The notes below the pieces were generated by a model that saw nothing but the letters and a program-made list of their open reading frames with translations, did no database searches and was not told where the DNA came from. A DNA stretch of 42,708 nucleotides, taken from sequence record QB031384.1. One strand, given 5' to 3'. Origin of the DNA: a phage. Within the stretch, counting starts at the first letter, position 1; each line of letters starts with the position of its first letter. Below, piece after piece: positions 3,001-42,393 of this stretch. The position numbers and the translations under genes are program-made.

Positions 3001-3251
3001 TTAATAAAGGCAGCGCCTTCTGAGAACATGATGTAAAGAAACTCTTTAGCAGTGCGACGTACAATCAGTACAGTGCTCTCTGCATCGAGAGGCTTGTCAA
3101 AGCGGATGCGCGTATCACTGTCCCAAGTAAAATCAAATACCTCTTCACGGTTCACGTACAAGTAAATGTAGGAACGGTCGAGATAGTTGATCTCTACTGG
3201 GACAGTCTGTGCACCAGCTGGTAGAATTTGTTCTTGCCAGCTATAGGCCAT
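3..3251 (-). CDS. Tail fiber / tailspike: N-terminal T7 gp17-like adaptor, central Asp-box (BNR) beta-propeller glycosidase-like region, C-terminal intramolecular chaperone (peptidase S74-like)
   Basis: 1082-aa ORF. N-terminal region carries the tail-fiber motif FRIINLAAGKDATDAVNKSQLD. Central region has Asp-box-like motifs SGDDGQTWTM and STNSGLTWEY. C-terminus has TSDGTLK ... HFGVIAQQVRDVL, typical of autocleaving chaperone domains. Last gene of the structural module. Confidence 0.8.
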   Translation of the reverse strand: MAYSWQEQILPAGAQTVPVEINYLDRSYIYLYVNREEVFDFTWDSDTRIRFDKPLDAESTVLIVRRTAKEFLYIMFSEGAAFIKENLDTQNTQFLHLAQELVEGRSIEGFFGTINMNGFRIINLAAGKDATDAVNKSQLDEVSTRVDNIEGAFNGVTSSYPMYFNTTEPTKEFRIALNFTKAAVYINGVCQTPGYSYTIRDNTVILADPVPAGTHVFMRLGEDVLEGGYATTESLAALSNALTRIDGPEVNPEYYRPHWRDSFDVRGWGVAGDAVTDDTAALQAMLAAAVHNQYIDGKGLTFKVTTLPDLSRFRNAAFKYERLAGQPLTYVSEGYFEAGLTKITDTPFYNAWTQDKSFVYDNVIYVPFMAGERHGVQNLHVAWVRSGDDGQTWTMPEWLTPIHPNYASGVNYHCMSMGVSNNRLYMLVETRNLSDARMVRAEMWSRPMPYARRPTGGISTVAGDNFATVVLPMHGLKVGDTINFSNSGVTGVSGNTVVRTVVDANTITVPLTNAAASTLTNAGVTWSFGTRFWDCQWEVTLLPGIAYSTNADLAVTETHSFTALEGNAVAVGYHNGDVSPRRLGILYFPDVYNNPGVFERRTVSQEYANDASEPCIRYYDGELYLTTRGTSATSAGSTLARSTNSGLTWEYLRFPNKVHNSNLPFAKVGDELYIFSSERAANEWEADTPDNRYNGNYARTFMCKVNVRNWPSSLDEVQWFNVTDQIYQGNIVNSSVGVGSVCVKDGWLYYLFGGEDFLSPWSIGGNSAKRWYVQDGHPTDLYSYRIKVGPQQHVSRDFKYGAAPNRTVPVSMGVDGLRHVSAPMVFDESVQVNSLRVTGTGHNGIPAVRSEVLLDGDYGQIYKSVPTDNPAQQRLILGGGSGNSAASGAIVQLYGSNHSTPNRAVLYATGGVYTQNNLLPYNDSSVALGGASNRWSTVYAATGTINTSDGTLKTAPEEVESALLDAWEDVHIISFKWLDSLATKGDAARTHFGVIAQQVRDVLVTNGLMEPEATSCKYGFLCYDEYPEMVEYDEEGNVSVVTPAGSRWGIRPDQMFFIEMLYQRRELARLKEQVKSLAHNKG

Positions 3252-18581: not shown

Positions 18582-21032
18582 CTAACAGAAAAAGAATCTG
18601 CTACCCAGTACCTGCTTAAGGTCCAAAGAACCTTTAGCTGGTAACTCCAGCCCTTCTAAGTCTGCCCCACAAGCTACTGCCGCATCAGTAATCTCCTGAA
18701 GTACGTCATGCTCTGTGTACAGACGTAGGAACTGTTCGCGGATAGCAGAATGCATTTCATCTACATCGCAAGCGTGAGTAGCTACCGAGTCGTGGATAGG
18801 CATAATGTCTCCTGAGAATGCAGAGATAGTCATACCTAAGTGAGTAGCGTCTAAGCTGTGCACCCAATTAGGGGAGATGCCTGACTTAGCCTTACGCTTG
18901 TTGTTTACATTGTAGTTACGGTTGTACACCAGCAGGTGTGTCAGGTTCATGCTCTTAACAGAAACCTTAGTCTCTTCTGATTCAGTGTATCGGTTGATAA
19001 CCAGCCCGCCTAACGGAGTCTTCCATTGAAGGTGGTTGGCTGCTGGTACACGATAGCACAGTGACTGTACATATTTCATCGCCTCAGTAGCTGCTGGGTT
19101 AGCGTCCTCTACTGCTGCCTTCATGCGAGTACTCAGATATCCTGCCAGCTTGAACAGGCTGTACTCTTCCGTTCCTTCGTAACCTTCTTCCTGTGCAGAC
19201 TGAAGGATGTACTCGGAGCAAGAGCGCACAGTAGCCGAGTATACGTGTGTCATGCATGGACGTTTAGCCATGCTGCGGGTAATCTCGTTCCCACGCCAGT
19301 AGTTAGCCTGCACTACGAAGTCAGGATTGTCCAGGTCCATGATGACCTTAGCATCAGTACGGCGCTTAACGTCCATGTACATATCTGCTTTCTCTTCGTT
19401 ACCCTCCCAGAACAGGTTAACTAAACGACCACCTACTGAGTCACGCAGTAACGCGGCGAAGTGCTGCTGCCCCGAGTTGGTTGCATCCATAGCCACCGGA
19501 ATGCGTGATTCGTATGTTTCCGGGCTGCCAGAGTCAATAGCAGCAACGAGGTCGATGCAGGCTGCCAGAAAACACCACGGGCTGTCTGCACTCCTGAAAG
19601 CTTCTGCATTAAACGGATTTGATGCGACAAGTCGAATCTGCTCGATATTAGCATCAGTCCAAGCTGCACGCTTTTCGAATAAGGCTTTATCATAACCATA
19701 GCAGGTAGCGACGTGTACCTTGAGCCAAAACAAACCCCGCTCTCCCAGAGGCTTTGCCCGACTGAAGGAGAGCAAAGCTTTCTGCATGTCAGGACCCTGA
19801 GGGTGCAGGCTTGATTTGAAGTACAGGCGGTAGCGCCAGTCAACGCAGGTTGGGAAGTACAGTTCTTTCTCATCCTTAAACTCCTCGCAGAGTTGAACCA
19901 GTGTCACCATGGAACGCAACTTACTTACGCGAGTACGCTCTTGGATGTACCAGTTACGCATATTCATCTTCCAAGTCTGGAAGTCATCCATCTGGCGCTC
20001 GGTGTAATCCTCTTTAGGTACACCGTCCAGATACCACTCAGGTCTAGGGGCTGGGTAGGAACTAGGCATACCTGTCGTTACACCTTCACGACGTGCTTGG
20101 TTAAGCAGATTAAGTACTTCCTTGTTGATAACGTAAGGCACTTCCTGCGCCTTGTTCAGCATATCCTTCAGTCCCTCTGCCTGCTTGAATGCCTCTGCTA
20201 CTTCACGTTTCATTGCACGAGTAATCTGGTGATTATGGTAAGTACCGCGCTTGCAAGTGCTGCTTAGAAGGTATCCACCTGAGAACATGTCTACATGCTT
20301 CTGCGGAGGTACAATCATTGGGGGTTTAATCTCTACGGTATCTGCGTCCAGTACTAAATCGCCTAGTACCTCAGCTAATACTTCAGACGGTGCCAAGTAT
20401 TGTAGCTGGGTTGCGTCAGTGCTCTTATCCCACGTGAACAGGCCTGTTTCCCACACAGGTTGTAGGATTAATTTACCTACTGCTACACACTGAGAAGCGG
20501 ACCAAGGTTCATGCCCGTAGTGCACGTTCTCTGCTGAAGCACGTAAGGTCTTCATAATATGCGACTGACTTGTAGTGTTACGTTCTTTCAAGTACTCAAA
20601 TACACGATTCATATATGCGGGTGCAACTACTTCTAGCTGTATGCTAAGGACCTCGGCTTGAACCTGGCGCCCTAGGTTAGCCAGCAAAGCTTGTGCAGAT
20701 GTACGGCTTCCACCAGACTCTTTAAGGAAGAGGGAGTCAATGCATTTAGTGAGTGCCATTACAGCGAGAACGTCAGTAGGGACCAGACGGATAATGCTGC
20801 GGTACTTACCGCCGACGCCTGCGGTCTTCTGTACCTTCATCTCGTCAATGCCTTGAGCAACAGTATCATAGGCTGCTGCAATCATGCGACTTACCTTAGG
20901 CAGGCTGCTTAAGTTACCTGCTGCCAGTGCCTTCTGCACCAGCTCACGCGACTTGTTCAAGCTGCGCGTACGGTAATCTTTCTCTAACTGTAACTGGCGT
21001 TCTACTTTCTGTTCTAATGTTTCGTGTTGCAT
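18582..21032 (-). CDS. DNA-directed RNA polymerase, single-subunit (T7-like)
   Basis: 816-aa ORF. Motif A DATNSGQQHFAALLRD, motif B RSMAKRPCMTHVYSAT, motif C IHDS. GAGGG SD 4 nt upstream. Sits directly before the structural genes. Confidence 0.9.
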   Translation of the reverse strand: MQHETLEQKVERQLQLEKDYRTRSLNKSRELVQKALAAGNLSSLPKVSRMIAAAYDTVAQGIDEMKVQKTAGVGGKYRSIIRLVPTDVLAVMALTKCIDSLFLKESGGSRTSAQALLANLGRQVQAEVLSIQLEVVAPAYMNRVFEYLKERNTTSQSHIMKTLRASAENVHYGHEPWSASQCVAVGKLILQPVWETGLFTWDKSTDATQLQYLAPSEVLAEVLGDLVLDADTVEIKPPMIVPPQKHVDMFSGGYLLSSTCKRGTYHNHQITRAMKREVAEAFKQAEGLKDMLNKAQEVPYVINKEVLNLLNQARREGVTTGMPSSYPAPRPEWYLDGVPKEDYTERQMDDFQTWKMNMRNWYIQERTRVSKLRSMVTLVQLCEEFKDEKELYFPTCVDWRYRLYFKSSLHPQGPDMQKALLSFSRAKPLGERGLFWLKVHVATCYGYDKALFEKRAAWTDANIEQIRLVASNPFNAEAFRSADSPWCFLAACIDLVAAIDSGSPETYESRIPVAMDATNSGQQHFAALLRDSVGGRLVNLFWEGNEEKADMYMDVKRRTDAKVIMDLDNPDFVVQANYWRGNEITRSMAKRPCMTHVYSATVRSCSEYILQSAQEEGYEGTEEYSLFKLAGYLSTRMKAAVEDANPAATEAMKYVQSLCYRVPAANHLQWKTPLGGLVINRYTESEETKVSVKSMNLTHLLVYNRNYNVNNKRKAKSGISPNWVHSLDATHLGMTISAFSGDIMPIHDSVATHACDVDEMHSAIREQFLRLYTEHDVLQEITDAAVACGADLEGLELPAKGSLDLKQVLGSRFFFC

Positions 21033-26018: not shown

Positions 26019-26591
26019 TTACATTGCCCAATCAGGACGCTCACCCTTACCGCAGTAAAAGTCAATCAGGTCTAGTAAGCGCGGATAATACTTCAGCGAA
26101 CTCTTACCGTCCATTTCCGCAACCTGGCGCCTACTGAAGCTGCGCCACTCTGCTGCCGTATGCTGCTGACATCCTGCACGCACTATGTCCTTACAGATAC
26201 TAATGAAGTACGTTTCTCCGTATATAATGACAGTCTTGGCGCCGCGCAGGTCAGCGCGGCGCAGGTTAGCGCCGCGCAGGTCAGCGTAGCGCAGGTCAGC
26301 GTCGCGCAGGTCAGTACCGGTCAGGTCAGCGCCGCGCAGGTCAGCGATGCGCAGGTCAGCGTCGCGCAGGTCAGCGCCGCTCAGGTCAGCGCCGCGCAGG
26401 TCAGTACCGGTCAGGTCAGCGCCGCGCAGGTTAGCGTAGCGCAGGTTAGCGCCGCGCAGGTCAGCGTCGCGCAGGTCAGTGCTGCTCAGGTCAGCGTCGC
26501 ACAGGTCAGCGTCGCGCAGGTTAGCGCGGCGCAGGTCAACGCTGTGCAGTCTTCCTAACTTATATATTTCGCAGATTTCTTGATAGTTCAT
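26019..26591 (-). CDS. Pentapeptide-repeat protein 1 (about 21 tandem A(D/N)LxG-type pentapeptides plus 70-aa non-repeat C-terminal domain)
   Basis: 190-aa ORF with an unbroken run of [15 protein letters not shown] pentapeptides after the N-terminal cap [12 protein letters not shown]. Strand chosen because all flanking genes are minus-strand. Confidence 0.8.
26238..26549. repeat. Tandem array of about 21 copies of a 15-bp unit (CGCAGGTCAGCGNCG-like) encoding the pentapeptide repeats
   Basis: Periodicity is visible directly: gcgcaggtcagcg recurs every 15 bp, varying mainly at 2-3 positions per unit. Confidence 0.9.
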
Positions 26592-27378: not shown

Positions 27379-27489
27379 ATTGAATCCTCTTAAGTCTGCA
27401 ACCTCACCGCGAAGTTGCTTAACTAAGAGACTTCCTTAGCGAGTCTTATTTCTCTTAGACTCTCATCTGCATCGCACTGTATTACCTGT

Positions 27490-27638
27490 GCACGGGAGGA
27501 ACCGCTCAAGCTCGTACTATCTACCCAGAGCTTTCAGGAGGGCACCGGGATTAAAGTCCCCGGTGACTAACAAGCCGCTTTGCTATCTGCATCTCGTCTT
27601 GATGAAATGAATTCTACAGCATTCTAAAACTGTGTCAA
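27490..27638 (-). promoter_or_regulatory. Promoter-leader cassette R1: sigma70-like promoter (TTGACA - 16 bp - TAGAAT) plus conserved structured 5' leader
   Basis: -35 at 27633-27638 and -10 at 27611-27616. Downstream leader contains a hairpin (CACCGGG/CCCGGTG), GCCCTCCTGAA, a second hairpin with loop GGGTAGATA, and GAGCGGTTCCTCCCGT. Homologous to copies at 34406-34528 and 35943-36080. Confidence 0.55.
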
Positions 27639-27650
27639 CACTTATTTTAA

Positions 27651-28838
27651 TTAAATTACCTCTTCCTCTTTAAAGGATTTACCAATACCACATTCGGCGG
27701 GAAACTTAACTTCAGACAGTATGCCAAAGTTAGGCCACAACTGTAGCATCCTATCACGGGCTCCTTCCATAACGTTTTTGATGAGCTTACCCGCCTTACG
27801 GGCCGTCTCTTCGTCAGCACAATCTATGTACAAACAGTCATGGACGGTAACCAGCAAACACCATTTACCCCCCATCCAATTGTCAGCTATACCAGCCCTC
27901 ATAGCCATTCCGGTTGCAATAAGCATAAGCAGGGAACCTGATCCTTGAAACGGATAGTTAGCCATCTCTGTGGGCTTAAAGTCCATTACCTGCTTACCTT
28001 CGCGCCACACCGGCTTCTGACGGAAGCGGTAGCGAGTACCGCAAGGCGTAGTGAAGTAGCCCTCGCGATAGATACGCCAGCTGCCGTCATCTGCTTGTTC
28101 ACGGCGTATAGGCTCCAGCAGCGCAGTACGGTTTACTTCAGCTGCAATGACATCCCTGTACTTAATAGACTCAGGGAATAGTGCCTCCTCGTTAGCTAAG
28201 AACTTCTCAGCGTCGGCTAAGCTAGCACCTGAGGCGAACGCCAGTCCTTTAGCGGATGCTCCATATTGTGCTGCGAAGCTGAAGGTTTTGATGGCTGTTC
28301 GCTTCTTCTTCCATCCTTTATGGTCCGGTGCATCCGGGTTATGGCAAAGCTCGTAGACTTCTTCATAAGGCATACCTTCTTGGAATGCTAGACGATAGCA
28401 GTGCATATCCGTACCGGCTTCAAGCAAGCTCAGTAATTTCTTATCACCAGTGATTACACAGCCCATTACAACCTCCATAGCTGAGTAGTCACACTGTGCA
28501 ATCATACCCTGCTCACCATAGCGGCTACGCAGAATCTGCTTAACCTTAGACTCACGCGGCAGCTGCTGCATGTTCGGGTTAGATGTTGACAGGCGTCCGG
28601 TAGTAGTTGAGCAGTGATTCGACCTGTGGTGAATGATGCCAGAACCATCTGCTGATGTAGGGATGACGTACGGCAGCATGCCCGTCACCTTACGCAGACT
28701 GCCATCCTTATTAGTCTCACGTACTTCATAGAAGCCGAGGTCCTTCTGGCGTGTAGTCATTTCTTTGTATGCTTTGAAGAAGTCTGAAGCTAACTTAGCC
28801 ATCTTGTTCCATCCCAATAAAATAATGTGCAAGGTCAT
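27651..28838 (-). CDS. DNA polymerase, family A: polymerase (fingers/palm) part
   Basis: 395-aa ORF with TGRLSTSNPNMQQLP, motif A-like CDYSAMEV, motif B-like RTAIKTFSFAAQYG and motif C VHD. Overlaps the upstream exonuclease-domain ORF by 44 nt in a different frame. Confidence 0.85.
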   Translation of the reverse strand: MTLHIILLGWNKMAKLASDFFKAYKEMTTRQKDLGFYEVRETNKDGSLRKVTGMLPYVIPTSADGSGIIHHRSNHCSTTTGRLSTSNPNMQQLPRESKVKQILRSRYGEQGMIAQCDYSAMEVVMGCVITGDKKLLSLLEAGTDMHCYRLAFQEGMPYEEVYELCHNPDAPDHKGWKKKRTAIKTFSFAAQYGASAKGLAFASGASLADAEKFLANEEALFPESIKYRDVIAAEVNRTALLEPIRREQADDGSWRIYREGYFTTPCGTRYRFRQKPVWREGKQVMDFKPTEMANYPFQGSGSLLMLIATGMAMRAGIADNWMGGKWCLLVTVHDCLYIDCADEETARKAGKLIKNVMEGARDRMLQLWPNFGILSEVKFPAECGIGKSFKEEEVI

Positions 28839-29940
28839 TCATTGCGTCCGTTCCTGTGCTGTACACAGGGCTACCATCCGCTAATGTTTGAGCACCTTTG
28901 TATTCACCGCGGTCTCCGTACTTCTCACGTAGAGACTGAGGTAGGTCCTGAATATTAACCAGCCCGTCGAAGCGGTACAGGCGTTCACCCCACTTCATAG
29001 CTTGCTCGTCAGTGTCTACTTTTATGAACTTAGGCATACCCTTATTACGCCCAGACTTATACACCCCGTCCTGTACTTCCTTCTTAATGTATTTAGGTGG
29101 GTCATAAGGAACCTTGCACTTGTACTTAACCATGCCACCATACACTAAAGCGGACATATGATAACCGCTATTCCAGTTAAACTCGAAGCCCTCTGGCAAT
29201 TCTGGCAAGAATGTCTGAAGTAACTCCCGCAGATTCCGAATAGCGTCCTCCTGCTCCTTCTGGTTTACGCGTGCTGTAGGCATATCAACGTACACGCCAT
29301 TGAACTCACAGTATGCCAGAGCTGCGACTGCCTCCATCCTTTCCCAGACCATAGGCATCTGTCCACGTTCCGCAAATACTGCGCATTGCCCGTAGAAGCA
29401 CAGCGCTGTGTTGACTATGTCACCGTTAGGCCCTGTTAAGTATTCATGTAGTAGCATAGGGTCAATGTCTGCTGTCAGAACCCCTTGCTGCCATAGTAGC
29501 TTAACGCCGTCGACTTTGTGTGACCCGCCATACTTAGGGGCAGTCTCATCTAGTGACGGGTAAAGATTCTGGAAGTCGCTGGCAATGTACTCGCCCTGCA
29601 TAGTATCAAAGACTCGACCTCCTCGTCTAAGGAACGACTCGAACTGCTCACGGGCAAAGGTCAGCGCCCAGCTAATCTCGTACGCTGCGTTGTGCGCTAC
29701 GATTAACCACGTATCATCCTGAATAGGTAGCCACTGCTTAGGGTCAGCTGCTAAGAAATCAGTTCGGGATTCATAGCGTACACTCTGCACCTCGCTGCAC
29801 TGTACAGTCCCATCCGGCATAGTCCTATCAATGCGGAAGCCTGATTCTACGATGTAGTTATCAGGGCAGTACGGAGTTGCGACCCCGCCGTAGTACGGAT
29901 GATTTTGAGTTTCAATATCCCAAATTAGAATGCTACTCAT
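28795..29940 (-). CDS. DNA polymerase, family A: N-terminal 3'-5' exonuclease part (separate frame from the polymerase part)
   Basis: Exo I motif WDIET near the N-terminus. The ORF track starts it at a TTG (29946); the ATG at 29940 overlaps the upstream small ORF's stop as ATGA. Ends 44 nt inside the polymerase-domain ORF. Confidence 0.8.
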   Translation of the reverse strand: MSSILIWDIETQNHPYYGGVATPYCPDNYIVESGFRIDRTMPDGTVQCSEVQSVRYESRTDFLAADPKQWLPIQDDTWLIVAHNAAYEISWALTFAREQFESFLRRGGRVFDTMQGEYIASDFQNLYPSLDETAPKYGGSHKVDGVKLLWQQGVLTADIDPMLLHEYLTGPNGDIVNTALCFYGQCAVFAERGQMPMVWERMEAVAALAYCEFNGVYVDMPTARVNQKEQEDAIRNLRELLQTFLPELPEGFEFNWNSGYHMSALVYGGMVKYKCKVPYDPPKYIKKEVQDGVYKSGRNKGMPKFIKVDTDEQAMKWGERLYRFDGLVNIQDLPQSLREKYGDRGEYKGAQTLADGSPVYSTGTDAMNDLAHYFIGMEQDG

Positions 29941-30089
29941 TTCCAATTACTCCGACGTGATTTATTAATGGCTGCCCGTACAATCATCTCGCTACTGTCC
30001 AGCGTGTAGCGCCTAACCTGCTTACGATTGTTAGCAATTGCTCTGATGACTTCGTAGTCTGCCTCAGTAATATCACTTTGCTTTAGCAT
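29937..30089 (-). CDS. Small basic ORF (50 aa), not in ORF track
   Basis: ATG at 30089-30087 preceded by GGTGAGGTG; stop overlaps the DNA polymerase ATG. Translation MLKQSDITEADYEVIRAIANNRKQVRRYTLDSSEMIVRAAINKSRRSNWK. Confidence 0.35.
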   Translation of the reverse strand: MLKQSDITEADYEVIRAIANNRKQVRRYTLDSSEMIVRAAINKSRRSNWK

Positions 30090-30234
30090 TGTTATTCACC
30101 TCACCTTTAAGGCCAGCTAGATGGGATTTAAGGCACTCGACTAACTCAACAATAGTATCCTCATCCAGTTCGAACATTCCTGAATCCCCCTGCTCCAACT
30201 CTATTAATTTTAAAGCTGCTTCATGTAATGTCAT
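30073..30234 (-). CDS. Small acidic ORF (53 aa), not in ORF track
   Basis: ATG at 30234-30232 preceded by a near-consensus SD, AGGAGGT, at about 7 nt. Translation MTLHEAALKLIELEQGDSGMFELDEDTIVELVECLKSHLAGLKGEVNNNAKAK. Confidence 0.45.
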   Translation of the reverse strand: MTLHEAALKLIELEQGDSGMFELDEDTIVELVECLKSHLAGLKGEVNNNAKAK

Positions 30235-32813: not shown

Positions 32814-33350
32814 TTAGATACTAACCCAATCAGCGACGCGCAGGTCAGCGTCGCGCAGGTCAGTGCCGGTCAGGTCAGCGCCGCGCAGGTTAGCGCCGCG
32901 CAGGTTAGCGCCAATCAGGTTAGCGTCGCGCAGGTTAGCGCCGCTCAGGTCAGTGCCGCGCAGGTTAGCGCCGCGCAGGTTAGCGCCGTGCAGGTCAGCG
33001 CTGCGCAGGTCAGCGCCGCTCAGGTCAGCGCCGCTCAGGTCAGCGATGTTCAGGTCAGCGTAGCGCAGGTCAGCGCCGCGCAGGTCAGCGCCGCTCAGGT
33101 CAGCGCCGCGCAGGTTAGCGCCAATCAGGTTAGCGTCGCGCAGCTTAGCGTCGCTCAGGTCAGCGACGCGCAGGTCAGCGTCGCTCAGGTCAGCGTAGCG
33201 CAGGTCAGCGCCGCTCAGGTCAGCGCCGCGCAGGTCAGCGTCGAGCAGGTTAGCGCGGCGCAGGTCAGCGCCGCACAGGTCAGCGCCGCACAGGTCAGCG
33301 CCTTCCAAGGATTCTAACTTGTATTTATTACAGATATTGTCATAAGTCAT
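32814..33350 (-). CDS. Pentapeptide-repeat protein 2 (about 32 tandem pentapeptides; paralogue of 26019-26591)
   Basis: Unbroken A(D/N)L(R/S/C)G-type run that ends at the stop codon. Preferred start is the internal ATG at 33350 (GAGGT SD 8 nt upstream; cap MTYDNICNKYKL matches [12 protein letters not shown] of protein 1). The ORF track extends it to 33401. Confidence 0.8.
   Translation of the reverse strand: MTYDNICNKYKLESLEGADLCGADLCGADLRRANLLDADLRGADLSGADLRYADLSDADLRVADLSDAKLRDANLIGANLRGADLSGADLRGADLRYADLNIADLSGADLSGADLRSADLHGANLRGANLRGTDLSGANLRDANLIGANLRGANLRGADLTGTDLRDADLRVADWVSI
32827..33302. repeat. Tandem array of about 32 copies of the same 15-bp unit (CGCAGGTCAGCGNCG-like)
   Basis: Same 15-bp periodicity and unit sequence as the array at 26238-26549, on the same strand. 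Confidence 0.9.
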
Positions 33351-33360
33351 ATTAGTAACC

Positions 33361-33597
33361 TCAGTTAATTTTAATATTAAAACGTGCACAATACCCTTCA
33401 AGGGTCATCCCTACTTTAGCTGCTTTAAGACTGTAAGCTAACTTAAGAGCTTCCTTAGCGTCATGCTCACGAGCCAGCTTCTCAATCGTTACTTCATCAT
33501 TACGCATCAGAATCATTTCGGGGTTCCGGTTAATCATTTCTGCATCTCCAGTTTGAAAAGGGCCATTGCAGCGTTCCAGGCGAAACGCGGGTTGCAT
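33361..33597 (-). CDS. Hypothetical protein (78 aa)
   Basis: ORF-track ORF in the early/middle region. No motif recognised. Confidence 0.45.
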   Translation of the reverse strand: MQPAFRLERCNGPFQTGDAEMINRNPEMILMRNDEVTIEKLAREHDAKEALKLAYSLKAAKVGMTLEGYCARFNIKIN

Positions 33598-33985: not shown

Positions 33986-34312
33986 TTATTTAACTCCTTT
34001 CGGTGTAGAAGACTTAGATTTAAAATAACTGTTAATGCGCTGGCAAGTCTTGCTACTAGGGCGGCAAGTGCGTTCACCACGTTCCTTGTACTCAGCGCTC
34101 TTAGCACTGCGCTGAGAGGCTTTATCTGACCAGTCATTACTAGGAATGGCTTCTGCTTTATAAGTATGCGTCATGAGCTTCTTAAGAGCTTTACGGGCCT
34201 CAGTACCCTCAGGCTTCTGTGCCAGCTGCACTAATTCACTACGATTAGCTTCTAACTTCTTAGCATCTTCAACAGAGATACCGAAACGACGTGCTTGAGC
34301 TTTAGCGTTCAT
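33986..34312 (-). CDS. Hypothetical basic protein (108 aa)
   Basis: First gene after promoter-leader cassette R2, with AAGGAG SD 6 nt upstream. Lys/Arg-rich, possibly nucleic-acid binding. Confidence 0.5.
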   Translation of the reverse strand: MNAKAQARRFGISVEDAKKLEANRSELVQLAQKPEGTEARKALKKLMTHTYKAEAIPSNDWSDKASQRSAKSAEYKERGERTCRPSSKTCQRINSYFKSKSSTPKGVK

Positions 34313-34405
34313 CTTAACTCCTTAGTGGTTTTATTAAAGCCCTCCGCAGAAGGCTTTGTAAAACTACTTTAGTTTCTTTCATCTCAGACCCACTGAATTA
34401 TCCGT

Positions 34406-34528
34406 GGACGGGAGGAACCGCTCGAGCCTGTTCTATCTACCCTAGGCTCTCAGAAGGGCAATCACTTAGCGTTGTTGATTAACGTCCTGCTATGAATCCA
34501 ACTATACTCCTATTTTATTTTGTGTCAA
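34406..34528 (-). promoter_or_regulatory. Promoter-leader cassette R2: sigma70-like promoter (TTGACA - 16 bp - TATAGT) plus conserved structured leader
   Basis: -35 at 34523-34528 and -10 at 34501-34506. Leader has a hairpin (AATCA/TGATT), GCCCTTCTGA, a GAGCC/GGCTC stem around GGGTAGATA, and GAGCGGTTCCTCCCGT. Confidence 0.55.
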
Positions 34529-34531
34529 CAC

Positions 34532-35197
34532 TTATTTTGAAATTCTTTCTGAAATATACACAAATCCCTTAGGAGTAAACTGCGCAGAGATGCGTGCAAC
34601 CTTTAATCTGTCAAAAGTAACCTTATGCTCCCCACGTTTAGCCTTTAGCCAGCCTGCACTGAATGTCCACGTACCATTCAATTTATACATATGCTTATTC
34701 TCTACCAGCCAACTTCTTACTTCAGCTTCAGTGTAAGATAAGAACTTACACATCTCACGGAAAGTCATAAGACCTGTAGTATCTACATAGTTACCTACGA
34801 ACTCAACCTTAGGCGCTGCTTCTTCTACCTTCTCTTGGAGCTTCAAGTTCTCTTCTGCGTAGTTCTGGAGAAGTCCCAGCAACTGCTTAGGGTCATGCAA
34901 GTTAATAGCAGGCTGACGTTGCTTACGCTCCAGCTCTTCCCAACGGTCAATGATACGGGCGCGCAGTTCTACATTGTAGCCAGAGATAATAAGTAATGTA
35001 TCACGTTTAGTTAAATGCCACTCGCGCTGTTGCTGATTATTATATCCGGCGTAAGTTACTGATTTACTTGATTGGCTCAAAACTGAGCCAATGCTTTCAA
35101 TGTCCCTAAGTACGTTCTTATGCAACTTACCAGTCAGCTCAGCAATCTCGCGGCTAGTCATGGTCTGTACATCAGTAGTAGTAGTTAAATCAAACAT
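34532..35197 (-). CDS. Rha-family regulatory protein with KilA-C/antirepressor-like C-terminal domain
   Basis: 221-aa ORF. N-terminal MTSREIAELTGKLHKNVLRDIESI matches the Rha signature as recalled. C-terminal half resembles antirepressor KilA-C domains. Confidence 0.55.
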   Translation of the reverse strand: MFDLTTTTDVQTMTSREIAELTGKLHKNVLRDIESIGSVLSQSSKSVTYAGYNNQQQREWHLTKRDTLLIISGYNVELRARIIDRWEELERKQRQPAINLHDPKQLLGLLQNYAEENLKLQEKVEEAAPKVEFVGNYVDTTGLMTFREMCKFLSYTEAEVRSWLVENKHMYKLNGTWTFSAGWLKAKRGEHKVTFDRLKVARISAQFTPKGFVYISERISK

Positions 35198-35882: not shown

Positions 35883-35942
35883 CTTAGCGAAGCTCTTGTC
35901 TCTTCAATCTAGTGAGCTTCTCATCTATTCCCTCTGTATAAC

Positions 35943-36080
35943 CCGAGGACGCTAGGTAACGCTCAGAACCTGTTTATCTACCCCGATTCTTCAGGAGGGC
36001 AGCGGCTTTATGTTATCCGCTAACGTCTTGCTTATGTCTTGCTATGTGATGAAGTATACGCTTCAAAACAGGTAAGTCAA
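35943..36080 (-). promoter_or_regulatory. Promoter-leader cassette R3: sigma70-like promoter (TTGACT - 16 bp - TATACT) plus conserved structured leader
   Basis: -35 at 36075-36080 and -10 at 36053-36058. Leader has a hairpin (AGCGG/CCGCT), GCCCTCCTGAA, an AGAAUC/GGUUCU stem (one G-U pair) around GGGTAGATA, and a diverged GAGCG...CCUC segment. Confidence 0.55.
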
Positions 36081-36135
36081 CAACTATTTTCAATTATTTC
36101 ATTCAGCGTAGTAAAATCTCGCACTATTAATAACA

Positions 36136-36909
36136 CTAACAAACTTCAGTGTCCTTACCTACTGCCTCAGATTGTAAGCGGACTAGCTCAATCTCTATCT
36201 CCTCCCAACTCTTAGAAGAGTAATCAGAATCTTCATACTCATCGCTAGTCATCCACTTACTATAGCGCTTGATACCATACTTCGTACGCACTATAGGAGT
36301 AGTATCTAATCCTTCACAATGGTTATTAGGATACGCTACTGAGCAGTTTAACCCGCCTAAAGAACCTTCAGCTATATCTATAGCTAAGCCTAAGCGTGCT
36401 TCCTTACCTCCAACTATACCATCACTATAAGGATACTCTGCACCTGCATTAACAGTACGTATAAAGTTAAGCTCATAAGCCCATATCATGTCAGCAGCAG
36501 CGTAAGGTGCTATAACAGCAGCTACACTACGCAAAGCCTTACTGAGCCTCCTAGACTCTGTACCACTACAACTACAGTACTTCTTAATACTGGCAGGAGT
36601 ATAGTCTGGTAGAGTCTTAGAGAGCCATAGCAGTTGTTCTATCTTCCCAATGTCCTTACTACTCCAGTCCTTAGTAAGCGCTACGGCAGCTCCATATAAA
36701 GCAAGAACATCAGCAGGTACTGTATCTATATCCTTACCTGTAAGATACGCAGACAACAGCGTAGAGTCAGCCTGCCTGTACTCTCGCAGCTGCTTACGCT
36801 TAGCTGTTATCTCCTTAGAGCTTTGAACTACAGCACCAGTAACTTGATTAACCCAACCATTTCTTCCCTGCTTCCAGAGATTACCGTTTACATCTATCTT
36901 AGTAGCCAT
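36136..36909 (-). CDS. First early protein (257 aa from SD-supported ATG), function unknown; acidic C-terminus
   Basis: The ORF track starts at 36924, but the second ATG (36909) has a GAGGT SD 6 nt upstream. It is the first gene after the putative genome end; C-terminus is acidic (DEYEDSDYSS, EEIEIE). Confidence 0.55.
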   Translation of the reverse strand: MATKIDVNGNLWKQGRNGWVNQVTGAVVQSSKEITAKRKQLREYRQADSTLLSAYLTGKDIDTVPADVLALYGAAVALTKDWSSKDIGKIEQLLWLSKTLPDYTPASIKKYCSCSGTESRRLSKALRSVAAVIAPYAAADMIWAYELNFIRTVNAGAEYPYSDGIVGGKEARLGLAIDIAEGSLGGLNCSVAYPNNHCEGLDTTPIVRTKYGIKRYSKWMTSDEYEDSDYSSKSWEEIEIELVRLQSEAVGKDTEVC

Positions 36910-37093
36910 CCTATACCTCTGCATGTAGTAAAAACTCGCACTATATATATAACAGTACTTAGTTCATTGACTCACCTGATTGTTAAAGAACTACCTATAC
37001 TACCTATAATATCACAGCGCTAACCCTGCATCAAGCATTGCACAGCCTGGGAGCAAAAGAGGTAAGCCCGGAGGCATAGCAGCGGCATGCAGC

Positions 37094-37187
37094 AGAGATA
37101 CAGTAGAGATACAGTACTGAACAAGGTGCTGAACAAAATAGGCAAAAGCATCTCAGAGCATCTCCCTGTGCTCGACAAAATAGGCAA
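37094..37187. repeat. Cluster of short direct repeats in the non-coding putative terminal region
   Basis: agagatacagt is tandemly duplicated (37094-37115); ctgaacaa occurs twice; acaaaataggcaa occurs twice 42 bp apart; agcatctc occurs twice. Confidence 0.5.
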
Positions 37188-37354
37188 GACTAACCTCTCC
37201 CGCACCCTCAACAGAGAGCGCAGAGACAGCCAGCCAAGCCAGGTCCTGCCAGAGATACGCAGAGGCACCCCCTACCCTCCCTCCAGAAGATTCCCAGAGG
37301 CCGCCCCTACGGGGGGAACAGCGCGTTGGTCGGGTGAGGGAGGGCCTCGTGTGA

Positions 37355-37391
37355 GTATAATAAATTCAAGGTGCTTGTTTACACGAGCACC
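37355..37391 (-). terminator. Putative rho-independent terminator after the last gene (tailspike)
   Basis: On the minus strand: stem GGUGCU/AGCACC (37370-37375 paired with 37386-37391), 10-nt loop, then UUGAAUUUAUUAU. Stem is short and the U-tract is interrupted. Confidence 0.4.
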
Positions 37392-37416
37392 CTGATGCTT
37401 CTCAGGTACATCCCCT

Positions 37417-39162
37417 TTAGTTATTGCGTCCTGTAAGAAGTACTGCATGATCATACGTGTGCTGCACCCCATCCAGCTGCATGCACAGACCTATTAACTG
37501 ACCGTTACTGCTGCCGGAATAACTAGCAGGAGCATCAAACTGACCTGAGATACCGCGTCTATCCAGGGCATCTGCACGAGCAACCCAACTGTAGTTACCT
37601 GGAGCAGCACTACGCTGTACGCCCGACCCAGCGGGTAAAGTAAAGCTAAGCTGTTTAGGGAAGCTACAGCGTAAGTTCAGAGGAGGTGCACCGCCATCTT
37701 CGAAGAACAATGCATTCCCTGAGCTGGTAGCCCAGTTAGAAGGGAATACTTCTACAGTACAGTCGCTGAAGCTCGTGCCAGGACGAAAGTACATGAAGCT
37801 GTAAAGTTCTGAGCTAGGGTGGCGCATCCTGATACTGATGTTGCAGCGGGTCATGCTTGAGATACGTTGTGTTTCAAACAAGTTCAGTCCGGTACGAGTA
37901 CCAGTATTAGTATCGCCGATGATGTTACTTGCATCCCAATTGAAGCGTTCTACCTGAACAGTACGGGGAGACGGTAACTCCGAGACCATAGCTTGTTTAA
38001 CATCGAAGAAGTTATCCTGGAACACTATGCCCTGAATACTACCGTTCATAGTAATGGCTGCGCTCAGGCTACGGCTGCGGTCTACAATGAAGCTACAACC
38101 ACGTACAGTAACATCATTAATGAGATACTGGCTTGAGTCGGAGTTAGAGTCCTGAAAGAAGTCTACGAAGCTGCACATACCCGGGTGGTTACCTGAAGTG
38201 AACCGACAATTCTCTACAGTAAAGCCGTTAATATGCGTAGTAGCTACTGCATCTGGACCTGCTGCAAAGATAACAACCTGACCTGATACGTCCCCAGTTA
38301 CCCCGGACATAACAGAGTTGTAAAGGTACGTACCAGCACCCTCTGACTCTGCGCCGTGCAGTGCTACATAGCAGCCGCGGGTATATCCTGAAATGAAAGA
38401 ATCGCGATAGTACGTATTATGCTGGTGCAGTTCTACAGTAGCAGCAATTACACGTGCACGGGCAGAATTAGCCCGGAATGTACAGCCTGTGACACCACTA
38501 AATGGTGCGTTTACATATACAGTACTGTGGTCACGGTTTACATCGCTCTGAATCAGGTTAAGGAACCGGCAGTTACGTACATGCGTATCTGAGCCGTACC
38601 CGTTCCAGCCAATAGTAACGCCCCATGTAACGTCCCCGTTCTGGAAGGTAATGCCATCTACGCTACAGTTATACCCGCGTCCGAATGCGATACCATTGCG
38701 GAGATGCCCGGCGTTAGCGAAGTCGTAACCGCCAAAGTCAATAGTACCCTCGCCATAAATATGGCAGTTATCAAGGTTGCCCGAGTTAGCTGGGTTACCA
38801 TCAGTAAAGCCTACGAAGACTTGGAAGGAACTATTAGCTAAAGCAGGGCCTACTTTAATAGTACCGTCCAGTTTAATACTTACATTGCTTTTAAGCTGGA
38901 TAAGACCGCTATGCCCTGAAACTGGGCCAGTGCTAATGCTGTTCAGCGTCCATGTACCTTCCGGGATAACTAGTAAACCGCCACCTACTGACTCTATGTA
39001 ATCAATAGCTGCCTGCATACCTTCTCGGGCATCAGCTACGTCGGGAGTAATCCACTGGCGCAGGTTATACCCATTATCATTGAGGTAGGTGCTAAGCTGT
39101 AAACCTGAATGGTCTACATGCAGCGTATCCAGTTCGACTTCAACTAACTTTACTAAGGTCAT
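37417..39162 (-). CDS. Tailspike / polysaccharide depolymerase with right-handed beta-helix (pectate-lyase-like), no N-terminal particle-anchor domain
   Basis: 581-aa ORF with N-terminal REGMQAAIDYIESVGGGLLVIPEGTWTLNS, then Gly/Asn/Thr-rich repeats typical of parallel beta-helices. No gp17-like adaptor region. Last gene before the putative genome end. Confidence 0.7.
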   Translation of the reverse strand: MTLVKLVEVELDTLHVDHSGLQLSTYLNDNGYNLRQWITPDVADAREGMQAAIDYIESVGGGLLVIPEGTWTLNSISTGPVSGHSGLIQLKSNVSIKLDGTIKVGPALANSSFQVFVGFTDGNPANSGNLDNCHIYGEGTIDFGGYDFANAGHLRNGIAFGRGYNCSVDGITFQNGDVTWGVTIGWNGYGSDTHVRNCRFLNLIQSDVNRDHSTVYVNAPFSGVTGCTFRANSARARVIAATVELHQHNTYYRDSFISGYTRGCYVALHGAESEGAGTYLYNSVMSGVTGDVSGQVVIFAAGPDAVATTHINGFTVENCRFTSGNHPGMCSFVDFFQDSNSDSSQYLINDVTVRGCSFIVDRSRSLSAAITMNGSIQGIVFQDNFFDVKQAMVSELPSPRTVQVERFNWDASNIIGDTNTGTRTGLNLFETQRISSMTRCNISIRMRHPSSELYSFMYFRPGTSFSDCTVEVFPSNWATSSGNALFFEDGGAPPLNLRCSFPKQLSFTLPAGSGVQRSAAPGNYSWVARADALDRRGISGQFDAPASYSGSSNGQLIGLCMQLDGVQHTYDHAVLLTGRNN

Positions 39163-39171
39163 ACCTGTTCC

Positions 39172-39735
39172 TTATTTAGGCATAGCAGCTACTGCTGCTT
39201 GCATAGATTTAAATTCGTTGCCAATAGCTTTGGCTTCCCACTTACGGCGCTCCCAGAGCCCGTAGCAGACCTTATTAGGTTTACCCTTTACCAACATACT
39301 ACAGTCGTACTTAACCCCGTTACGGGTGATATAGCGCCAGCTAAGTACAGCCTTAGCTGCACCTTTAGTATCGCCTTGCATTAGCTTTCGCTTCGCGGTA
39401 CTGTTCTTGAAACCTGAGATACCGGTGTTATAGGTCATGTCCAAAGCACCAAGAATCTGTACGTCCGTAAGGGACATAGGAAGCCCGTCAAGAGCCTTAG
39501 CATGCTCCCCAGCTGATTGTATCAGTTGTTGCTTACACTGCGTCAGAGTGGCTGTATCGCCCATCCTAACGCCCTTAGTCTCACCATAGCAGATAGTAGG
39601 TACTCCGGCGGAGTCCTTGTATGCCTTAAGGGAGAGACCTTCGTTATGCTGTATCACCATAGCGATACTGGCGCCCAGCAGGGAAGTCCCTGCCAGCGCC
39701 GCCTTAACCTTGTTGCTTATGCTCATAGTATTCAA
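39172..39735 (-). CDS. Endolysin, lysozyme family (GH24-like) with N-terminal signal or signal-anchor-release segment
   Basis: 187-aa ORF with catalytic-region pattern EGLSLKAYKDSAGVPTICYGET (E ... D ... T) preceded by the weakly hydrophobic N-terminus KVKAALAGTSLLGASIAMVI. Confidence 0.8.
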   Translation of the reverse strand: MNTMSISNKVKAALAGTSLLGASIAMVIQHNEGLSLKAYKDSAGVPTICYGETKGVRMGDTATLTQCKQQLIQSAGEHAKALDGLPMSLTDVQILGALDMTYNTGISGFKNSTAKRKLMQGDTKGAAKAVLSWRYITRNGVKYDCSMLVKGKPNKVCYGLWERRKWEAKAIGNEFKSMQAAVAAMPK

Positions 39736-40569: not shown

Positions 40570-42393
40570 TTAATATTTGATGCGTGCGCTCGCACCACGC
40601 TTGCGCTTGTGCACCATTGACTTCTTCCAGCCCATAGGGTTATCCATAAAGTCTAACGCCTTCTTAAGCTGGTCCTTCTCTGCTGCCTGCTTCTCATCCT
40701 CTACGAGGTGCGAGTTCAGTTCAGCTACGAGCATACTAATAGCGTCTGCCCGGTCATCCTTCGCTAGGCTACCACGGTCATAAGTAATACCAGATAACTG
40801 CTGGAACGCACTGTAAAGCCAGCGCTTATCACGACTGTACTGCATACAGTATTTGATATCGTCTTCCAGCGCCCTAGCGTGCACTACAAAGCGGTGACGA
40901 CGCGTAACAGGGGAGATAGTATCAATGATACGTTTCTCCTTCTGGGACGTGTTATAACCGCCCCTGACACCAATGCCGGGCATACTACGCTCACGCAGAC
41001 GGTTTATAATCAAAGATTCTACCGTGCCGTGACCCATGTTACGCTCGACAAAGATGTCAGTAATACCCATCTCGACCGCTAGGTCAATCAAGGTATCTAC
41101 GTTCTCTGTGCTAAGCCCACCCTGCAACCCGCCTACAGTAAAGAGGTGGATGTAAGAGCTAACTGCACCACCGGCTGCAAAGGATACTTCATCACCACCG
41201 TTACCAGCAGGGTCAAGTACCAGCAGCTTGTGCTTGTAGTTGAGCATATGCTCCCCTATGTGGCTCGGCACATACAGTTGCTGACCTCGAATACCTTCGT
41301 GTTCCTCTCCGTAGAGATAGCGCTTATCAGCCATGTAGTTCAGTCGGTCAGGTGCTGCATCATGCGAGCCAGTGTAAATCAAAGCGTCACTGAGTTTAAT
41401 CTTGGTACGTAGTGCATCGGACATGGTTGTGTCGAGCATATACTGTAATTGGAACCCTTCTGGGCCGAAGTCCAGTTCCTTCTCAATCAAGGCTTCCTCG
41501 TTATAACGTCCTTTATCGGTGCATTCACCTAACGTACCATCCAACCCAAAGCCTGTTTCTTTATACCCTGCGTCGATGAGGGTTTGAATATACGGGGCAA
41601 GGGTTTCTCCGTAACGCTCGCGCATCTCCTGATTAGGAATACGTCCAGGCCATACACGTACCTCGAAGCCACGACCCGGCAGTGTCTTGTAGATACTCTC
41701 CTTAGTCTGAGGAGTACCGAGGTACAGGGTATCACCGTGCGTACAGATAGCTGCAAAGTCTTTAGAGATGTTCAGTAACTGCTCACGCATTGTCTGCGTC
41801 AGGCCGTTCTTGGTTGTTTCAATATCGTCAGGAATCAGGAGGTCAGCACGTTTACCCTGAAGCTGCGCGGTAATACCAACACAAGCAATAGAGGCTGACT
41901 TATCCAGAGGTTTCAAATCGCAGTTAATGTCGTACCCTTCATAAGAGGTACGGTCACCACGGGTAGGGTCTGCTTTCAGGTAACAGAGCAGAGGCCACGT
42001 CTCAATCATACGAATGACAAGCGTAGCTACTTCGGATGCCTGCTTCTCACCGCCAGAGACGATAAGAATACGTGTACGCTGGTCTTGAATAAGCCGCCAT
42101 ACAGCGTACAGGGCAGCCAACGTGGATTTTGCTTCGCCTCGTTGTGCAGCTACCATGCGCTTACGCGGACCGTGCTGCATGAAGTCAGCAATATCACGCT
42201 GCATCTCCGTCAGGTCAAAGCCTAGGAACTTCATACCTAAGTATGCAAACTCCCGGAAGTCCTTCAGGGTAACAGCCATCATCAGTGCTACTTCCTCGCG
42301 CTGGTCCTTAGGGATAGTGCGGGGACTGTCATTCATTACTGTAGTGCGTTGAGATATTAGTTTCAATCGGTTCAGTGTAGTAGGACTAATCAC
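40570..42393 (-). CDS. Terminase large subunit (T7 gp19-like)
   Basis: 607-aa ORF (T7 gp19 is about 586 aa) with ATPase-like N-terminal half and nuclease-like C-terminal half, directly after the small-subunit gene. Confidence 0.85.
   Translation of the reverse strand: MISPTTLNRLKLISQRTTVMNDSPRTIPKDQREEVALMMAVTLKDFREFAYLGMKFLGFDLTEMQRDIADFMQHGPRKRMVAAQRGEAKSTLAALYAVWRLIQDQRTRILIVSGGEKQASEVATLVIRMIETWPLLCYLKADPTRGDRTSYEGYDINCDLKPLDKSASIACVGITAQLQGKRADLLIPDDIETTKNGLTQTMREQLLNISKDFAAICTHGDTLYLGTPQTKESIYKTLPGRGFEVRVWPGRIPNQEMRERYGETLAPYIQTLIDAGYKETGFGLDGTLGECTDKGRYNEEALIEKELDFGPEGFQLQYMLDTTMSDALRTKIKLSDALIYTGSHDAAPDRLNYMADKRYLYGEEHEGIRGQQLYVPSHIGEHMLNYKHKLLVLDPAGNGGDEVSFAAGGAVSSYIHLFTVGGLQGGLSTENVDTLIDLAVEMGITDIFVERNMGHGTVESLIINRLRERSMPGIGVRGGYNTSQKEKRIIDTISPVTRRHRFVVHARALEDDIKYCMQYSRDKRWLYSAFQQLSGITYDRGSLAKDDRADAISMLVAELNSHLVEDEKQAAEKDQLKKALDFMDNPMGWKKSMVHKRKRGASARIKY

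Follow-up and report, generated by a model that had tools for sequence, protein, structure and literature searches.

Promoter and leader at the R2 locus

The stretch of phage DNA analysed here, referred to at its full length of 42,708 nucleotides (nt) as the window (sequence record QB031384.1), comes from a coliphage of the Slopekvirinae (Autographivirales) related to vB_EcoP_PAS7. At the locus labelled R2, which like all annotated genes of the window is read on the minus strand, a sigma70-type promoter is followed by a leader that extends down to a start codon at 34312, where the gene for a small basic protein begins (Table 1). R2 is very probably a sigma70 promoter together with a leader RNA whose core, about 115 nt long, belongs to an undescribed family of structured RNAs lying behind the host-type early promoters of phiKMV-like phages. 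The family is absent from Rfam and unannotated, and no paper describing it was found.

The original prediction had placed at 34406-34528 one copy of a repeated cassette made of a promoter and a structured leader, and such a cassette does lie there, with a promoter matching the sigma70 consensus at 11 of 12 positions. A covariance model built from an alignment of 11 copies (A1) finds exactly three matches in the window (E 1e-38 to 1e-41), the cassettes R1, R2 and R3, which are 1.5 and 6.9 kb apart. The interval itself needed extending on either side, since it ends within hairpin P3 (34407-34390) and omits the tail down to 34376, the hairpin at 34364-34328, the segment 34324-34310 and the upstream flank to 34538. 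Of the sigma70-type sites that the gene strand carries from 26.5 to 38 kb, the top three (34528-34501, 27638-27611 and 36080-36053) each have a leader copy behind them; a fourth promoter candidate, at 30234, was rejected, being inside a small gene and lacking a leader.

The A-rich flank upstream of the R2 -35 hexamer extends to 34538 with the same letters as in R1, and the identity claimed earlier for the -35 region with its flank, AAAATAAGTGTTGACAC, is exact: it occurs twice in the window (34522-34538 and 27632-27648), where 0.13 occurrences would be expected by chance. The same is true of the 3' block GAGCGGTTCCTCCCGT, now read as the GAG junction plus hairpin P2b, with exact occurrences at 34408-34423 and 27492-27507 (0.21 expected). 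That the whole cassette had been duplicated is correct for the -35 flank and the core, which are common to the copies, but not for the rest, as the spacer and -10 region are only about 70% alike between cassettes (family D12 of a repeat scan), while in R1 the P1 hairpin has been replaced and an additional hairpin lies upstream. Judging from the promoter, we infer that transcription of R2 starts at about 34493, which would leave some 12 unpaired nucleotides 5' of P1. The initial transcribed nucleotides, AUAGCAAGACG, are kept from Pseudomonas phage phiKMV to the coliphage of the window (34493-34483 and 36046-36026 in the window, ~1268-1278 in record L234), and they occur twice in R3.

Fold and covariation of the leader core

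From 5' to 3', members of the family consist of the hairpin P1, a pseudoknot, a GAG junction, the hairpin P2b, a single U and the hairpin P3, with core stems of 3-7 bp. The folding energy of R2 taken alone is weak (z = -1.45 for the RNA strand and -1.92 for the opposite strand); the evidence for its structure is covariation. Alignment A1 contains 11 distinct copies -- the three of the window, two more from Escherichia phage vB_EcoP_P64441, three from PAS7 and three from two IMG/VR contigs -- and on it RNAalifold predicts four helices with 21 pairs, 13 of which show compensatory changes. The stem around GGGUAGAUA is GAGCC/GGCUC in R2 and AGCUC/GAGCU in R1, both on the minus strand, and the hairpin upstream of it is AAUCA/UGAUU in R2 (34480-34476 with 34464-34460) and CACCGGG/CCCGGUG in R1, so that the earlier reading of pairing kept through changes of sequence is borne out. 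That reading did not recognize the GGGUAGAUA stem as stem 2 (S2) of a pseudoknot, nor did it include P3 or anticipate that the cassette is not private to the genome in the window.

An invariant CCC 5' of the GGGUAGAUA stem complements a GGG within the loop of that stem. The resulting helix, S1 (GCCC/GGGU), is invariant within the window's coliphage clade, and its pairing is read from relatives: in all those compared, the bases directly 5' of loop L1 complement those straight after the 5' arm of the GGGUAGAUA stem. The arms are GCCC/GGGU in the window, GGUCC/GGACC in phiKDA1, GGCGU/GUGCC in KKP 3828, GGGGAG/CUCCCC in Peggy and PP16, GGGGC/GCCCC in KpV475, CCCGC/GCGGG in LAh4, GGGCAU/GUGCCC in BF25/12 and GGGU/ACCC in phiKMV. 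On alignment A3 (24 sequences, with columns padded by hand to fit the pseudoknot structure) 451 of 451 cells are paired and 19 of 23 pairs show double changes, changes on both sides being seen in all six pairs of S1 and in six of the seven of S2. None of 500 shuffles reached any of these measures, and sliding the partners by 1-3 columns reduced pairing to 32-48%. Because A3 had been fitted by hand, the count was repeated on a model-fitted alignment, A4, whose model does not contain S1; there 97.5% of cells are paired and 16 of 21 pairs have double changes. A3 holds two helices in crossing order, each supported, and on this alignment the structure is an H-type pseudoknot in which the spacer between S2 and S1 is absent or short. 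In the family, L1 has 5-6 nt (GCUGA or UYCUGA) and the A-rich L3 has 4-11 nt. The two hairpins further downstream covary as well, P2b as CGG/CCG, CGU/GCG, ACCUG/CAGGU and CGGUG/CACCG, and P3 as CCAC/GUGG, GCAC/GUGC, CCUC/GAGG, ACAC/GUGU and CCCUG/CAGGG.

While the stems covary, the unpaired GCUGA of L1, the GAG junction and the loop of P3, within UCCAC-GGUUGUGCA-GUGGG, are almost fixed among phages of Pseudomonas, Aeromonas and the Enterobacterales, a range over which the phage RNA polymerase proteins are about 60-70% identical. A covarying pseudoknot RNA whose unpaired nucleotides stay fixed in four subfamilies and several host genera is very likely functional, and its contact is probably with a conserved host machine. 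In nearly all members S2 is flanked by 5'-UGA and GAG-3' (34450-34452 and 34421-34423 in the window); to judge from the alignment, it could be extended by tandem sheared G-A pairs, in the manner of a K-turn or loop E.

Three repeats found together with a promoter might also be expected of an element acting as DNA, such as a protein site or replication origin, or of neutral duplicates whose RNA does nothing. The double changes in 19 of 23 pairs, and the pairing of every cell on A3 as against 32-48% in the slid controls, speak strongly against this, as does the retention of the architecture across four subfamilies (Krylovirinae, Slopekvirinae, Corkvirinae and Melnykvirinae), and we regard it as very improbable. 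Several pairs are G-U in many copies and would be A-C mismatches on the opposite strand, which argues further against a role at the DNA level and indicates that the molecule that folds is the transcript of the gene strand.

Table 1. Features of the R2 locus and positions of the two further cassettes (window coordinates)
Feature	Position	Strand	Description
R2 promoter	34501..34538	-	sigma70-type, TTGACA-16-TATAGT at 34528-34501; 11/12 consensus matches
R2 -35 hexamer	34528-34523	-	TTGACA; spacer 16 nt
R2 -10 hexamer	34506-34501	-	TATAGT
R2 leader core	34376..34489	-	P1, pseudoknot, GAG junction, P2b, P3 and conserved tail GUCUGAGAUGAAAG; covariance model 124.6 bits, E 3.5e-41
P1 hairpin	34459..34481	-	UAAUCA / UGAUUG, loop ACAACGCUAAG; compensatory in 4/6 pairs among 11 copies (RNAalifold), double changes in 4/6 in A4
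Predicted H-type pseudoknot	34424..34459	-	S1, L1, S2, L2, L3; covariation
Pseudoknot S1	34459-34456 with 34442-34439	-	GCCC with GGGU
Pseudoknot S2	34449-34445 with 34428-34424	-	GAGCC with GGCUC; stem around GGGUAGAUA
Pseudoknot L1	34455-34450	-	UUCUGA
Pseudoknot L2		-	UA
Pseudoknot L3	34438-34429	-	AGAUAGAACA
GAG junction	34423-34421	-	GAG
P2b hairpin	34420-34409	-	CGG-UUCCUC-CCG
Linker	34408	-	U
P3 hairpin	34390..34407	-	CCAC-GGAUAAUUCA-GUGG; mostly beyond the interval 34406-34528
P4, long imperfect hairpin	34328..34364	-	GUUUUAcAAAGCCuUC-UGCG-GAgGGCUUUaAUAAAAC; predicted fold, terminator-like, without U-tract
Shine-Dalgarno sequence	34324-34318	-	UAAGGAG
Start codon of downstream gene	34312-34310	-	ATG
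R2 downstream gene	33986..34312	-	108 aa, isoelectric point (pI) 10.05, hydrophilic; phrog_9286 (PHROGs: unknown function)
R1 cassette	27460..27648	-	promoter 27638-27611, core 27601-27460; covariance model 115.8 bits
R3 cassette	35918..36090	-	promoter 36080-36053, core 36030-35918; covariance model 123.7 bits

Distribution of the family and its genomic setting

Covariance models and BLAST found the architecture in about 290 GenBank phage records, all from phiKMV-like phages, with members in Drulisvirus, Koutsourovirus, Bucovirus, the Corkvirinae, the Aeromonas genus Ahphunavirus and Pseudomonas phage phiKMV. The A1 model gave a weak, unexpected match in Enterobacter phage phiKDA1 and, with filters off, also matched the early leaders of Salmonella phage KKP 3828, Enterobacter phage SDFMU_Pec, Klebsiella phage KpV475 and Cronobacter phage Peggy. 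BLAST with the KpV475 element matched 194 phage records at one place each, including Pectobacterium phage PP16 and Dickeya phage BF25/12 (Corkvirinae) and Aeromonas phage LAh4 (Melnykvirinae); among the matches listed there was either no annotated feature or just short hypothetical open reading frames (ORFs) overlying the element. A second covariance model adds Shigella phage Buco and Pseudomonas phage phiKMV, at 37-39 bits, and the phiKMV version is present in 94 Pseudomonas phage records. The annotated records inspected show nothing in the leader of about 400 nt that separates the host-type promoters from the first gene.

Wherever it occurs, the element follows near-consensus sigma70 promoters at a distance of 15-260 nt and precedes early genes. 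Genomes outside the P64441/PAS7 clade have a single copy, where the early operon begins, and those within it have three. R2, which precedes a small basic gp1-like gene, is the orthologous copy and keeps the ancestral position; with the additional copies R1 and R3, each behind a sigma70 promoter of its own, the conserved leader RNA has been triplicated locally. The phiKMV element occupies 1365-1493, some 100 nt beyond the last annotated promoter. For its relative LUZ19, early transcription has been mapped to three sigma70-like promoters, at 913, 1147 and 1248 (PMC3604761; PMC10914365), which sit just upstream of the position homologous to the element.

Rfam 15 gave no matches for the whole window at the gathering threshold and none for five relatives at E<=1, while at E<=10 the R2 region gave just two partial matches at chance level, both outside the core; no tRNA or tmRNA was found in the window. 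A comparison with 5,426 E. coli genomes and 72,556 plasmids turned up no similar DNA, and no description of the element was found in the literature on put, on KP34 and Drulisvirus, on phiKMV and LUZ19 leaders or on pseudoknots. Short patterns produced mainly chance matches: an exact 16-mer occurred at 24 loci in IMG/VR, of which only two (L005 and L009) were real, and all 160 loci with CCCTYCTGA-N6-8-GGGTRGATA in metagenome and genome contigs were due to chance, nhmmer limiting the match to the pattern itself. A hammerhead-like reading of CUGA...GA was rejected, since it does not fit the consensus CUGANGA...GAAA and the Rfam ribozyme models were silent, and so was a type III toxin-antitoxin RNA (ToxI-like), in which direct repeats of about 36-45 nt stand in tandem beside an endoribonuclease toxin gene, as the copies are not tandem and no toxin gene is annotated nearby.

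The leader core is joined to two kinds of 3' leader module, the first consisting of a long hairpin, a Shine-Dalgarno sequence and a basic gene, as in R2, and the second of three short hairpins plus other genes, as in R1, R3, phiKDA1 and phage ECO104. The distance from core to start codon varies from about 47 to 175 nt, and one of the PAS7 copies comes after a small ORF, some 260 nt from its promoter. The genes downstream of R1, R2 and R3 are unrelated to one another: R1 precedes a gene for an acidic 69-aa protein and R3 one for a possible membrane protein of about 94-112 aa. The 108-aa protein after R2 is homologous to the product of the gene following the element in KKP 3828 (BLASTP 2e-10) and weakly similar to phiKMV ORF1 (0.003), while another small, very basic protein, phrog_6352, follows the element in Drulisvirus, PP16, BF25/12, Peggy and Buco; phrog_9286 and phrog_6352 match each other weakly (hhalign probability 9.8%, P 0.003). 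The R2 protein matched no Pfam family and no PDB chain and has no detectable similarity to lambda N.

This setting suggests an alternative, which we consider possible but unlikely, in which the core would be a cis-regulatory leader of the gene that follows, either a riboswitch-like aptamer for a small molecule or an operator for the downstream basic protein in an autoregulatory circuit like those of the T4 gene 32 leader pseudoknot and the lambda N-leader. A small, very basic, hydrophilic protein (pI 10-11.3, grand average of hydropathy about -1) follows in R2, PAS7, KKP 3828, phiKMV, Drulisvirus, PP16, BF25/12, Peggy and Buco, with a long hairpin and then a Shine-Dalgarno sequence behind the core, and a pseudoknot whose loop and junction nucleotides are invariant is a typical aptamer feature. 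The core is, however, also joined to the other downstream module and to unrelated genes in R1, R3 and phiKDA1, its distance from the start codon is not conserved, no common expression platform is evident, and no riboswitch or leader family in Rfam was matched. The basic proteins, moreover, diverge past secure recognition while the RNA loops stay fixed, the reverse of the pattern expected if RNA and protein were co-evolving, and element and gene may be found together merely because both mark the start of the early operon.

The long hairpin of the first module, P4, has counterparts that by inspection precede the Shine-Dalgarno sequence in the leaders of Koutsourovirus and Drulisvirus. As a terminator the R2 hairpin (34364-34328) was rejected: it is followed by CACUAAGGAG, without a U-tract, and is missing from the list of a terminator scan. 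It is better read as the long P4 hairpin of these other genera; lying downstream of the core, it could also be an RNase III site. A mini-ORF after P3 (AUG AGA AGC UAA in copy a of PAS7 and in copy a of L009) is probably not coding, as its start is AUA in R1 of P64441 and the Shine-Dalgarno sequence is inconsistent; in the window such a mini-ORF stands at the conserved AGAUGA at 27469-27458 (R1, AUG AGA GUC UAA) and at 35926-35906 (R3).

Phage ECO104 4-5-2 (positions 39053-39300 and 40971-41049 of record L191) has one leader in which a nested stem with the same GCUGA as an internal loop takes the place of the pseudoknot, and another lacking the pseudoknot. The record in question, OR844702, is one of four -- the others being OR850875 (L192), OR846985 and OR848265 -- that GenBank marks UNVERIFIED_ORG and that are named as Listeria or Salmonella phages; each carries the RNA polymerase gene of the coliphage-like record ECO104 4-5-2, 90.2% identical to that of the window, and their host labels look doubtful.

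As to the rest of the genome, the window is 100% identical to P64441 (PQ847473) over R2 and only 85% over R3; from this comparison it is taken to be a mosaic relative of P64441 and not the same isolate. R1 follows the DNA polymerase genes, some 9.5 kb into the genome. DNA polymerase is encoded in two overlapping ORFs (27651-28838 and 28795-29946, minus strand), annotated as two coding sequences in P64441 and PAS7 as well; this may be a split gene or a programmed frameshift. Two genes for pentapeptide-repeat proteins (26019-26591 and 32814-33401, minus strand) are the source of repeat family D1, with its 15-nt period. A non-coding stretch of about 480 nt at 36925-37416 (minus strand), rich in G+C and internally repetitive, separates the tail-fibre gene from the first early gene and is probably the physical end of the genome or a terminal repeat. 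The 1082-aa ORF at 3-3251 (minus strand) corresponds to a gene annotated in P64441 as encoding endo-N-acetylneuraminidase, which suggests, on this correspondence, a phage specific for the K1 (polysialic acid) capsule.

Candidate functions and comparison with known systems

The early end is near 37,000 in the window and the phage RNA polymerase gene a long way off, at 18582-21032; the host RNA polymerase must therefore transcribe everything between, as in other phiKMV-like phages. The host-transcribed stretch ahead of this gene amounts to about the first 40-45% of the genome (~18 kb), and the gene is similarly late in phiKDA1 and Buco, at 18-21 kb. The function that we favour, with a probability of about 0.35, is suggested by analogy with the put RNAs of phage HK022: the element would be a cis-acting signal for processive antitermination or anti-pausing on the host RNA polymerase. 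It would fold in the nascent transcript of the host enzyme and act in cis on the elongation complex, either alone, like HK022 put RNA, or with a phage or host protein, and the polymerase would thereby become resistant to pausing and to both Rho-dependent and intrinsic termination. By analogy with T7, the host enzyme might also pull the early stretch of DNA into the cell. Transcription from the promoters of R1-R3, the binding of RNA polymerase and the effect on termination are all inferred.

Several observations point this way. In the P64441/PAS7 clade there is one copy per strong sigma70 promoter, with variable modules and genes and fixed loops, which argues for a function of the transcript or of the transcribing enzyme and not of any one gene; that the loops stay fixed across hosts while the stems covary points to a conserved host partner; and the element is found in phages with a long host-transcribed region, while the family model finds nothing within the first 3.2 kb of T7, which suggests a modification like that by put. 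As a precedent, HK022 has put RNAs behind both of its early promoters, and these act on RNA polymerase without a protein (PMC9378689).

A number of points weigh against this reading. The putL and putR regions, read in the HK022 genome, have no similarity in sequence or structure to the element, and the family covariance model had no match in the HK022 immunity region at E<=1. A boxA (CGCUCUUA or GCUCUUUA) is not conserved among 16 leaders, 15 of which have at least two mismatches; GCUCUUAGUUAAG in copy a of PAS7, considered as a lambda boxA with one mismatch, was rejected, being unique to that leader and equalled in about 9% of shuffled leaders. Inspection of the R1, R2 and R3 leaders found no boxB-like hairpin (a 5-bp stem with a GNRA-like pentaloop). 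Downstream terminator-like sites are no more frequent than in shuffles (6 where 7.6 were expected, and 5 where 7.0 were), and no leader copy precedes the first early gene (36136-36924). The position before a small basic gene is equally consistent with cis-regulation of that gene. Finally, a close relative, ECO104 4-5-2, whose RNA polymerase is 90% identical, keeps the promoter and the 3' leader without the pseudoknot, which must therefore be dispensable or replaceable.

Two further accounts place the function in the finished transcript. In the first, which seems improbable, the core would be processed out at the downstream hairpins as a trans-acting non-coding RNA that accumulates early in infection and sequesters or redirects a conserved host factor (RNA polymerase, Rho, RNase E, Hfq or a defence protein). 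The strongest promoters drive it, three copies in the clade would raise its dose, its loops are conserved across hosts, and the long imperfect hairpin after the core stands where T7 early RNA has its RNase III sites. Two uncharacterised non-coding RNA candidates derived from 5' untranslated regions have, besides, been reported in LUZ19 (PMC10914365). On the other side, neither a defined 3' end nor a terminator is evident behind the core, the hairpins downstream in leaders of the R1 and R3 type are all short, and nothing like the element was found in E. coli genomes or plasmids, so that there is no sign of mimicry of a host RNA.

In the second account the element would serve mRNA processing or stability, shielding early transcripts from RNase E or directing cleavage by RNase III. 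The early RNAs of the T7 group are processed at structured intergenic sites, with RNase III cutting T7 early RNA at R0.3 to R1.3, and in the clade every sigma70 transcript has the element in its leader. The core itself was nonetheless rejected as an RNase III site of the T7 group, which is an irregular duplex of about 20 bp or more, as its stems of 3-7 bp fall far below such a substrate. The unpaired nucleotides before P1 leave no protective hairpin at the 5' terminus, one copy, in PAS7, is internal and behind an ORF, and a plain stabiliser would not need invariant loops or a pseudoknot across four subfamilies; we hold a role of this kind to be decidedly improbable.

To return to the put-like signal, its fullest form, which is rather doubtful, would have virulent phiKMV-like phages of Pseudomonas, Klebsiella, Escherichia, Pectobacterium and Aeromonas carry a new class of processive antitermination or anti-pausing RNA that has no sequence relationship with put or nut. 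This RNA would reprogram the host RNA polymerase, alone or with the small basic gp1-like protein, to transcribe the early and middle region as far as the phage RNA polymerase gene and perhaps to drag the DNA in. If the partner is RNA polymerase, this would be a second, independent invention of RNA-mediated antitermination and would explain how the host enzyme deals with some 18 kb of foreign DNA. Should the element instead turn out to act as riboswitch, operator or decoy, it would still represent a new class of regulatory RNA, with about 290 natural variants to study. phiKMV, LUZ19, KP34 and their relatives serve as model systems and have wide use in phage therapy, and promoter plus leader make a portable expression cassette that the phage itself has used three times.

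Among known systems, the gene 32 leader of T4, T2 and T6 likewise places an H-type pseudoknot close to the 5' end of the leader of an early or middle phage mRNA, but there it is a single, gene-specific copy that nucleates the binding of the protein encoded downstream, whereas the phiKMV-like core also precedes unrelated genes and carries three extra hairpins. The early leader of T7, another member of the Autographivirales, is similarly a long, structured, untranslated leader running from strong host-type promoters (A1-A3) to the first early gene; its RNase III sites, in contrast, are long irregular duplexes without pseudoknots. In lambda the order is PL, nutL, an RNase III hairpin and the N gene, with a further nut copy behind another promoter. 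The R2 arrangement of promoter, RNA element, long hairpin, Shine-Dalgarno sequence and gene for a small (64-108 aa), very basic, hydrophilic protein is much the same, and here too there are additional copies of the RNA element behind other promoters, though unlike nut it has no boxA and no 15-nt boxB hairpin with a GNRA-like loop.

The differences from HK022 putL and putR are those of a temperate lambdoid phage from virulent podophages, without similarity in sequence, and of two long stem-loops in a V shape from a hairpin, an H-type pseudoknot and two short hairpins. put is a demonstrated antiterminator, and the phiKMV-like element, known here from its sequence, is likened to it in mechanism only. 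put contains a base triplex (PMC9378689), and in the phiKMV-like element an A-rich loop would cross stem 1 of the pseudoknot. Both are structured nascent RNAs of some 70-115 nt lying just downstream of host-type early promoters, with one copy per early unit, and in both one copy is promoter-proximal while another can be about 260-270 nt downstream.

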